NCBI RefSeq assembly: GCF_003334815.1
Contig: NZ_QOWO01000138.1
Length of the DNA stretch: 253 bases
Source: Escherichia coli
Lineage (GTDB): Bacteria; Pseudomonadota; Gammaproteobacteria; Enterobacterales; Enterobacteriaceae
Reading direction: 5' to 3' (one strand)
Shown here: piece by piece, positions 1-253 of the stretch
How positions within the stretch are numbered: position 1 is the first letter of the stretch
Layout: every line of letters starts with the position of its first letter
Made by a program: the position numbers and the translations under genes
Notes under the pieces: model-generated
What the model was told of the DNA's origin: nothing
The model's input: the letters and a program-made list of their open reading frames with translations, nothing else
Databases searched by the model: none

Positions 1-2
1 GC

Positions 3-251
3 GAGAGAGCGTTGCCGCAGGCAACGACCCGAAGGGCGAAGCGCGCAGCGCTGAGTAATCCTTCCCCCACCACCATCACTTTCAAAAGCCCCGGAATTCT
101 CAAACGAATCCGCAATCAAATATTCTGCCCAAGCGGGGAAGGATGAGAAGCTTCGACCAAGGTTCGACTTGAGCGCCAGCGAGAGAGCGTTGCCGCAGGC
201 AACGACCCGAAGGGCGAAGCGCGCAGCGCTGAGTAATCCTTCCCCCACCAC
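3..251 (-). CDS. Hypothetical stop-free reading frame on the minus strand (fragment, open at both window ends); no recognisable product
   Basis: Minus-strand codons occupying plus triplets 249-251 down to 3-5 contain no stop over 83 codons. Translation: [83 protein letters not shown]. Plus-strand tca occurs only at 76, 82, 100 and 116 (all out of this frame); no tta or cta anywhere. Caveats: the 178-bp period is not a multiple of 3, so the two repeat copies are read in different frames; the second half is Arg-rich like off-frame GC-rich sequence; third-position GC is about 70% in the first 40 codons but about 53% in the rest; no similarity search possible. An ATG on the minus strand at plus 76-74 (MVVGEGLL...) is a possible start in a different frame. 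Confidence 0.15.
10..26. other. Perfect hairpin: 7-bp stem CGTTGCC / GGCAACG with 3-nt loop GCA
   Basis: Seen directly: 10-16 cgttgcc is the exact reverse complement of 20-26 ggcaacg, loop 17-19 gca. All seven pairs are Watson-Crick. No U/T tract follows on either strand, so it is not an intrinsic terminator. Function unknown. Confidence 0.45.
40..52. other. Hairpin: 5-bp stem AGCGC / GCGCT with 3-nt loop GCA
   Basis: Seen directly: 40-44 agcgc pairs with 48-52 gcgct, loop 45-47 gca. It lies in a GC-palindromic tract (gcgcgc, agcgct), so alternative registers exist. Function unknown. Confidence 0.35.
58..144. repeat. 10-bp perfect inverted repeat pair: ATCCTTCCCC (58-67) and GGGGAAGGAT (135-144), bracketing the AT-richer core
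   Basis: Seen directly: the reverse complement of 58-67 equals 135-144 exactly. Extension fails on both sides (57 a vs 145 g; 68 c vs 134 c). The left arm is inside the 75-bp repeat, so 236-245 is also complementary to 135-144. Biological meaning not established. Confidence 0.6.
188..204. other. Second copy of the 7-bp stem / GCA-loop hairpin (inside repeat copy 2)
   Basis: Identical sequence to 10-26, shifted by 178 nt. Confidence 0.45.
218..230. other. Second copy of the 5-bp stem / GCA-loop hairpin (inside repeat copy 2)
   Basis: Identical sequence to 40-52, shifted by 178 nt. Confidence 0.35.
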
Positions 252-253
252 CA

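Follow-up and report, generated by a model that had tools for sequence, protein, structure and literature searches.

The DNA analysed here, 'the window' below, is 253 nt long with 60% G+C and just 13% T, and K-12 MG1655 matches it at 100% identity on the K-12 minus strand (NC_000913.3 1286710-1286962). It lies at the far end of the tRNA-Tyr operon tyrTV and comprises the last 1.4 units of a tandem repeat of 178 bp. In the window itself this appears as a direct repeat of 75 nt, positions 1-75 being 100% identical to 179-253 at a spacing of 178, and at the locus as a whole (L001, for coordinates below) Tandem Repeats Finder gives a period of 178 bp and 3.1 copies. The gene order in L001 is purU, tRNA-Tyr, RtT, tRNA-Tyr and three RtT copies, with the nitrate reductase gene narI coming from the opposite side; narGHJI and tyrTV are convergent and the gap from narI to the array is approximately 180 nt. 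The repeat locus of the tyrT operon has been known since the late 1970s. On the plus strand of the window 122..253 is a whole RtT RNA copy, the last of the three in the array after tyrV (full-length to Rfam RF00391; PGAP 'RtT sRNA' at L001 2622-2753), 1..75, the same as window 179-253, is the 3′ part of the second copy (5′-truncated to RF00391; within the 'RtT sRNA' at L001 2444-2575), and 76..121 is the 46-nt spacer of the 178-bp unit between the two RtT cores, inside which lie all four antisense stop triplets of the window. The unit that comes first after tyrV is the one named rttR in NC_000913.3 (1287066-1287236), whereas the window holds the second, in part, and the third, which are paralogous to it, and PGAP labels these two copies 'RtT sRNA' as well.

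The structure of the locus varies among E. coli strains, with one or two tRNA-Tyr genes, the intervening RtT copy present or absent, and from one to three trailing units with a length of 177, 178 or 179 nt. Complete E. coli genomes with a match number roughly 4,700, and the comparison among strains covers seven loci plus an even sample of 40 records. There is a single trailing unit in 15 of these 40 E. coli records, and about 25% of matching E. coli records have at least 99% identity over the window. A circular or mobile small element was also considered, 253 being 178 + 75 and so what a circle with overlap would give, and it was rejected as the array is chromosomal, tandem and of 3.1 copies. 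No phage match to the window was found, and what few 'plasmid' records did match are either as large as a chromosome or non-mobilizable.

The plus strand of the window is a member of the RtT family (RF00391), with every defining feature that can be tested by sequence being present: against a gathering score of 45, 122-253 scores 134.2 bits (E 5e-30) over the whole model and 1-75, as a 5′-truncated copy, 70.8 bits. A DNA-pattern scan of species-representative genomes gave 109 stretches with RtT, from Citrobacter, Enterobacter, Klebsiella, Salmonella, Kluyvera, Buttiauxella, Pantoea, Serratia, Xenorhabdus and others, and 132 distinct Enterobacterales RtT copies form the alignment (A1) used throughout. 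The secondary structure as a whole, derived from RNAalifold plus counts of pairs in the 132 copies, spans 136..244 on the plus strand. RNAalifold yields a closing helix of 9 bp (136-144 with 236-244) and four hairpins, and a sixth hairpin spotted in the alignment, at 218-222/226-230, brings the structure to 32 pairs; the other plus-strand hairpins are at 147-153/159-165, 168-174/179-185, 188-191/201-204 and 206-208/212-214, and the three nearest the 3′ end (188-191/201-204, 206-208/212-214 and 218-222/226-230) recur in the partial copy at 10-13/23-26, 28-30/34-36 and 40-44/48-52. The Rfam consensus line leaves 218-222/226-230 unpaired, whereas it is a covarying hairpin in the present alignment. 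Over the 132 copies 97.0% of cells pair as compared to 39-49% (maximum 48.9%) when the partners are slid, 12 of the 32 pairs have compensatory changes (in one of them UA is found in 76 copies, GC in 26 and CG in 24), and none of 500 shuffles reached any of the observed measures of pairing. Column entropy is 0.25 for paired and 0.55 for unpaired columns, i.e., about half. It is the plus-strand RNA that is constrained in the repeat.

What is the relationship of this RNA to the tRNA whose genes precede it? Each RtT unit ends in the last 19 nt of tRNA-Tyr, CCA included. In the window that sequence, AATCCTTCCCCCACCACCA, closes the second RtT copy at 57..75 and the last at 235..253, both on the plus strand, the former being identical to both tRNA-Tyr ends in L001 and the latter likewise identical to the tRNA-Tyr ends. 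At all 97 of the other Enterobacterales loci where upstream sequence is visible, tRNA-Tyr is the closest tRNA upstream on the same strand, and at 95 of the 97 it is within 120 nt of RtT. In other genera the 3′ tails of RtT mirror the local 3′ variant of tRNA-Tyr (TCTCCC in 14 of 14, CCCCCG in 9), and the lineages with TCTCCC have a compensating change in the 5′ strand of the closing helix (pair 18-127, AU in nine copies). Derivation of RtT from tRNA-Tyr over its whole length was a separate idea and was rejected: outside the 19-nt 3′ end only CTTCG...AAGGTTCG aligns, with a score of 17 versus a shuffle mean of 14.3 (P = 0.14), which is not significant. The covariation, together with the copying of tRNA-Tyr variants in the tails, supports a mechanism in which RtT units would be co-transcribed with the tRNA-Tyr genes, and each would fold independently into a compact multi-hairpin structure under its 9-bp closing helix, its tRNA-like 3′ end being open to trimming by the tRNA maturation machinery; the end-processing through which the tRNA matures may also be what frees each unit from the primary transcript. 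Release by that route is what we infer over and above the published processing data, in which, as related in PMC3318445 and bioRxiv 2024.07.17.603846, processing of the tyrT primary transcript in K-12 yields a discrete RNA of ~171 nt (Bösl & Kersten 1991). A modulating effect of RtT RNA on the stringent response has been proposed (bioRxiv 2024.07.17.603846). A preliminary description of the window, made from its letters, had overlooked this structured plus-strand RNA and the 19 nt from the tRNA-Tyr 3′ end with which it closes.

The plus strand of the first array copy also has an intact ORF of 29/33 aa, tpr (b1229, 'protamine-like protein'), which starts at GGATGAGAAGC. It is not in the window copy, where there is a truncated tpr-like ORF, MRSFDQGST* (143..172, plus strand), broken by CGA to TGA at 170-172; the ATG and first 9 codons are kept, and AAG stands in place of the upstream ATG. 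As a constrained plus-strand feature tpr was rejected, since it is intact in merely 6 of the 132 distinct RtT copies, and 78 of the 132 stop after five codons.

The preliminary description was concerned with the minus strand. There the frame opposite plus triplets 3-5 to 249-251 has 83 codons without a stop, and the other two minus frames have stops. Of the triplets whose complements are stops, TTA and CTA are absent from the plus strand of the window and TCA is at 76, 82, 100 and 116 only, always outside that frame, with three of the four sharing one frame; there is no TTA, CTA or TCA within 122-253 or 1-75. All three plus frames are closed, by TGA at 52, 144, 170 and 230 and TAA at 56 and 234. 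In all of this the earlier description was exact, position by position, and it was right also that the repeat is translated in two frames on the minus strand (178 mod 3 = 1) and that the CAT at 74-76 provides an antisense ATG. The ORF it foresaw from that ATG in a tandem array does have 110 codons; the accompanying 'about 2.4 unit lengths' has to be amended, as 333 nt, stop included, is 1.87 units.

The open frame already has a name. Its translation is identical to that of ychS (b1228), 'putative uncharacterized protein YchS', a CDS of 91 codons from ATG to TAG at 1286709..1286984 of NC_000913.3 (plus strand there; L001 2479..2754, minus strand) that covers window 1..253 on its minus strand. 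The ATG starts one base to the right of the window, being the complement of 252-253 (the CA that ends CCACCA) and of the T that follows, and the TAG, 22 bases to the left of the window, arises from a C-to-T difference in the preceding repeat copy (GACCAAGG to GACTAAGG). Stops in this frame are five codons upstream of the ATG and seven codons past the window, giving a stop-to-stop stretch of 96 codons (L001 2482-2769); stops just outside the window were among the things that the preliminary description had said would count against a gene. The exact protein is UniRef YCHS_ECOLI and was found on 73 contigs, and the cluster at 90% identity has 25 members, all from E. coli except for one partial 'Staphylococcus aureus' entry, and named solely 'hypothetical' or 'YchS'. 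PGAP makes no CDS call on either strand at the locus in seven genomes, calling just tRNA-Tyr and RtT sRNA. As to literature, one microarray table (PMC2731931) places ychS after narI, and the sole statement found (PMC5444009) is that 'no additional information is available'. ychS is directly downstream of narGHJI and in the same orientation, and read-through transcripts could cover it. The RNA (rttR) and ychS are both already named, and there is nothing new in kind here; between ychS and the window ORF there is no difference in sequence, and what differs is status, as comparative tests give the gene no support.

Is an open frame of this length a surprise? The 178-nt unit was shuffled and then re-extended to 253 nt. 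One pre-specified minus frame was open in 4.9% of mononucleotide and 12.8% of dinucleotide shuffles; with the dinucleotide-preserving shuffles any minus frame was open in 31%, and an open minus strand was combined with a closed plus strand in 16%. Any of the six frames was open in 24% of mononucleotide and 63% of dinucleotide shuffles. The rough estimate of about 5% in the preliminary description accordingly holds for one pre-specified frame with mononucleotide shuffling (0.049), though not for dinucleotide shuffling (12.8%) nor for any minus frame (31%). The open minus frame is real, yet it is no more than chance gives, and of the three readings proposed at the outset, i.e., a disrupted gene, a repeat-encoded ORF and an effect of composition, these shuffles make the last the best supported. 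TTA and CTA are rare in the unit because it has few Ts and only two TA dinucleotides. A point on the other side is that antisense stop triplets are missing from all frames of the RtT core, which the shuffles make mildly unusual (P 0.02 with mononucleotides, 0.09 with dinucleotides). A T-poor and TA-poor RNA strand would leave the antisense stop triplets TTA, CTA and TCA rare, and so the minus frame open, while the tRNA 3′ end CCACCA followed by T, which on the opposite strand reads ATG GTG GTG, would supply the start. Every CCACCAT, whether at the end of a tRNA or of an RtT, opens an antisense 'MVVGEG...' ORF, the antisense sequence being ATGGTGGTGGGGGAAGG, the reverse complement of window 57-75 plus the next base. 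We consider it very likely that selection on the RNA, or its composition, together with the CCA-T junction, gave rise to the minus-strand ORF as a by-product, and that it is no protein-coding gene.

If ychS encoded a protein that mattered, its frame ought to be visible in the comparison of the RtT copies. The spacing of RtT units across genera is 167-180 nt with all three mod-3 classes represented, and the RtT core has a length of 101-111 nt, the mod-3 classes having 68, 50 and 14 of the 132 copies. Core indels are of 1, 2, 3, 4, 6 and 8 nt, and one 1-nt indel in a loop divides the set into 75 and 57 copies. Of the 132, 68 have the ATG frame open, and for the other minus frames the figures are 52 and 82; shuffles predict around 45-48 open copies per minus frame, and the observed values are somewhat higher, all frames alike. 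No single minus frame is preserved across the copies. In the frame in which ychS reads the full copy, the column entropies of codon positions 1, 2 and 3 are 0.413, 0.375 and 0.334, the third being the least variable, and the pooled pN/pS over the 132 copies is 1.48; the frame in which it reads the partial copy has a pN/pS of 1.33. The remaining minus frame, with a pN/pS of 0.39, was considered for a hidden coding signal and rejected, that frame being open in 52 of 132 copies, near expectation.

Within E. coli, K-12 and an O157:H7 strain have approximately six nucleotide differences over the window region (97.6% identity), and while the ORF is of 91 aa in both, five residues differ: five of about six ORF differences alter the amino acid. 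In seven E. coli strains the antisense ORF that starts from the last unit has 91, 91, 188, 45, 59, 110 and 59 aa. Searches for relatives of the ychS protein gave no NCBIfam match at E up to 1, no Pfam match at E up to 10 and no match to PDB sequences at E up to 1, which is the lack of protein similarity that the preliminary description had suggested looking for. The codon statistics, also suggested there, are non-genic: GC at codon positions 1/2/3 is 0.65/0.58/0.56 in ychS and 0.58/0.39/0.72 in its neighbour narI, and very rare codons amount to 12% in ychS, 4% in narI and 3% in purU. The codon usage of ychS is atypical of its host and its GC3 is not raised. ychS does not pass a single one of the comparative tests for a gene and, because of the frameshifting indels, the pN/pS of ~1.5, the variation in length, the absence of a family match and the atypical codons, is judged almost certainly non-coding. 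The repeat-encoded ORF of the preliminary description therefore does exist, and is annotated as ychS/b1228 in NC_000913.3, with no evidence of its being a gene.

Could ychS nevertheless be a real, young, lineage-restricted gene for a small protein that arose de novo antisense to RtT and is expressed by narGHJI read-through or from an unrecognised promoter? It is a CDS in the K-12 reference and is in UniProt/UniRef, it has an ATG with, 3-4 nt upstream in seven of seven E. coli strains, the Shine-Dalgarno-like AGGAAG, its 91-aa length is shared by K-12 and one O157:H7 strain, and to this can be added the 73 contigs with the exact protein and the ~25% of matching E. coli records in which identity over the window reaches 99% or more. 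However, that same K-12/O157 comparison is where five of ~6 differences change an amino acid, pN/pS exceeds 1, the length ranges from 45 to 188 aa among strains, family and structure matches are lacking and codon usage is poor. A crude scan of the minus strand from the narI terminator as far as the ychS ATG found no sigma-70-like site, PGAP makes no call, and functional literature on ychS was not found. We regard such a gene as very improbable, and its more specific form, a very young, strain-restricted de novo gene expressed by narGHJI read-through, as a shade more improbable still; were it true, the raw material for a new protein would have been an RNA repeated in tandem and read in two frames. 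A role of the minus strand in which the frame is irrelevant can also be envisaged, namely as non-coding antisense RNA, with narGHJI read-through pairing with the tail of the tyrT operon or with RtT and so affecting processing or stability. The convergence of narGHJI and tyrTV with only ~180 nt between narI and the array would suit it, and ychS probes tracked the nar genes on one array (PMC2731931). Against this, the interval between narI and the array has a strong intrinsic terminator (a 9-bp stem plus a T-run) and a REP-like sequence, the comparative data do not require an antisense RNA, and array signal from a repeat opposite a highly expressed tRNA operon would be unreliable if the probes were not strand-specific. 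This too has a very low probability in our estimation.

The remaining proposal, from the preliminary description, was that the open frame is a remnant of an ancestral protein gene broken by a frameshifting 178-bp duplication. The formal pattern alone, an open frame with a repeat in it of a length not divisible by 3, speaks for it, and what was taken for a duplication is the RtT array of 3.1 copies native to the operon. Its repeat unit is a functional RNA unit in its own right, found in 1-5 copies after tRNA-Tyr across the Enterobacterales with periods of 167-180 nt. The single-unit translations have no protein homolog in Pfam, NCBIfam or PDB. The corollary that fewer 178-bp units would restore a longer ORF is not borne out either, as strains with fewer units regain no conserved longer protein, and in those with a single unit the ORFs simply continue antisense to the tRNA gene. 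A disrupted gene is extremely improbable and already effectively refuted.

With the RNA and the ORF already named, and with comparative evidence that speaks against ychS as a gene, the biological weight of the open frame is small. Its value is for curation: the indels that shift the frame, a pN/pS over 1, the varying length among strains and the missing PGAP call make a case for demoting ychS (b1228), still a CDS in the K-12 reference, to a spurious ORF. It also exemplifies a general trap for scans, in that structured RNA poor in T and TA yields long antisense open frames, and the trap is added to when the reverse complement of a tRNA CCA end plus T supplies an ATG. The spurious antisense ORFs called opposite structured RNA genes, such as those for rRNA and tRNA, are a parallel, the window ORF too being a long open frame opposite conserved RNA, with its start in a tRNA 3′ end read in reverse complement. 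It differs from them in that it received a gene name and b-number in a reference annotation. It is not alone at its own locus, as K-12 has further antisense ORFs of 129 and 201 codons there, the latter crossing both tRNA-Tyr genes, and long antisense frames are thus generic at tyrTV.

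The RtT repeat has an extra hairpin on the plus strand, at window positions 218-222/226-230 and again at 40-44/48-52, corresponding to columns 101-105/110-114 of A1, our alignment of 132 distinct RtT copies from Enterobacterales. Though the Rfam RtT consensus line leaves this stretch unpaired, as does the RNAalifold prediction, all five of its pairs have compensatory changes in the alignment, the pairing variants being AGCGC/GCGCT, GGCGC/GCGCC, GACGC/GCGTC and GCAGC/GCTGC. Overall the hairpin is 84% paired, and one sub-lineage (GGAGC..GCGAC) is a misfit.

What of tpr, the small plus-strand ‘protamine-like protein’ ORF inside the repeat? 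The first copy of the K-12 array is the only one in which it is intact (plus strand, 2275-2376 of L001, the K-12-type locus), and the broken copy at window 143-172, on the same strand, reaches a stop after 9 codons. Because the 29-aa ORF is kept in only 6 of the 132 distinct Enterobacterales copies, and in 78 of them the stop comes after 5 codons, the conservation of tpr looks no better than that of ychS, the minus-strand ORF opposite the array. Other antisense ORFs of the operon are one of 201 codons that passes through both tRNA-Tyr genes (minus strand, L001 1832-2437) and one of 129 codons opposite the operon (minus strand, L001 2226-2615); the CCACCAT at each tRNA or RtT end is the start of an antisense ‘MVVGEG’ ORF.

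The 90%-identity YchS cluster includes WP_308906144.1, a 66-aa partial hypothetical protein labelled ‘Staphylococcus aureus’, which is most likely E. coli contamination of an S. aureus assembly. One evolution experiment reported that an allele of ychS carrying 3 point mutations was present at 100% frequency (PMC5444009). Since the array has three near-identical 178-bp units, that allele may reflect gene conversion between units or mis-mapping of reads and not selection on ychS.

In some E. coli lineages the array is lost, or strongly expanded, as a megablast search with the window gave no match at all in 726 of 5,426 complete genomes and matches at 1 to 10 places per genome in the others. The match in the laboratory strain E. 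coli Stbl4 (NZ_CP081009.1 4538885-4539681) is in three pieces over ~800 nt and overlaps an annotated ISAs1-family transposase, which suggests that an IS inserted in or beside the array. Among the loci of other genera (L008-L116) arrays reach five copies, and periods go down to 167 nt (Enterobacter ludwigii, L069). Some copies there end early, after the first hairpins (there are examples among L023, L025, L066, L042 and L054), and the sequence that follows such shortened copies resembles a REP element or a terminator. The CCACCA tail is missing from 27 of the 181 extracted RtT copies. In the K-12-type locus the interval between the array and the convergent narI (L001 2790-2925) has a REP-like palindromic element (…GCCTACAATATCC…GTAGGTCGGATAAGCGAAGCGCATCCGAC…), together with the intrinsic terminator for narGHJI on the minus strand (L001 2918-2897) and a sigma-70-like site on the plus strand (L001 2803-2830).
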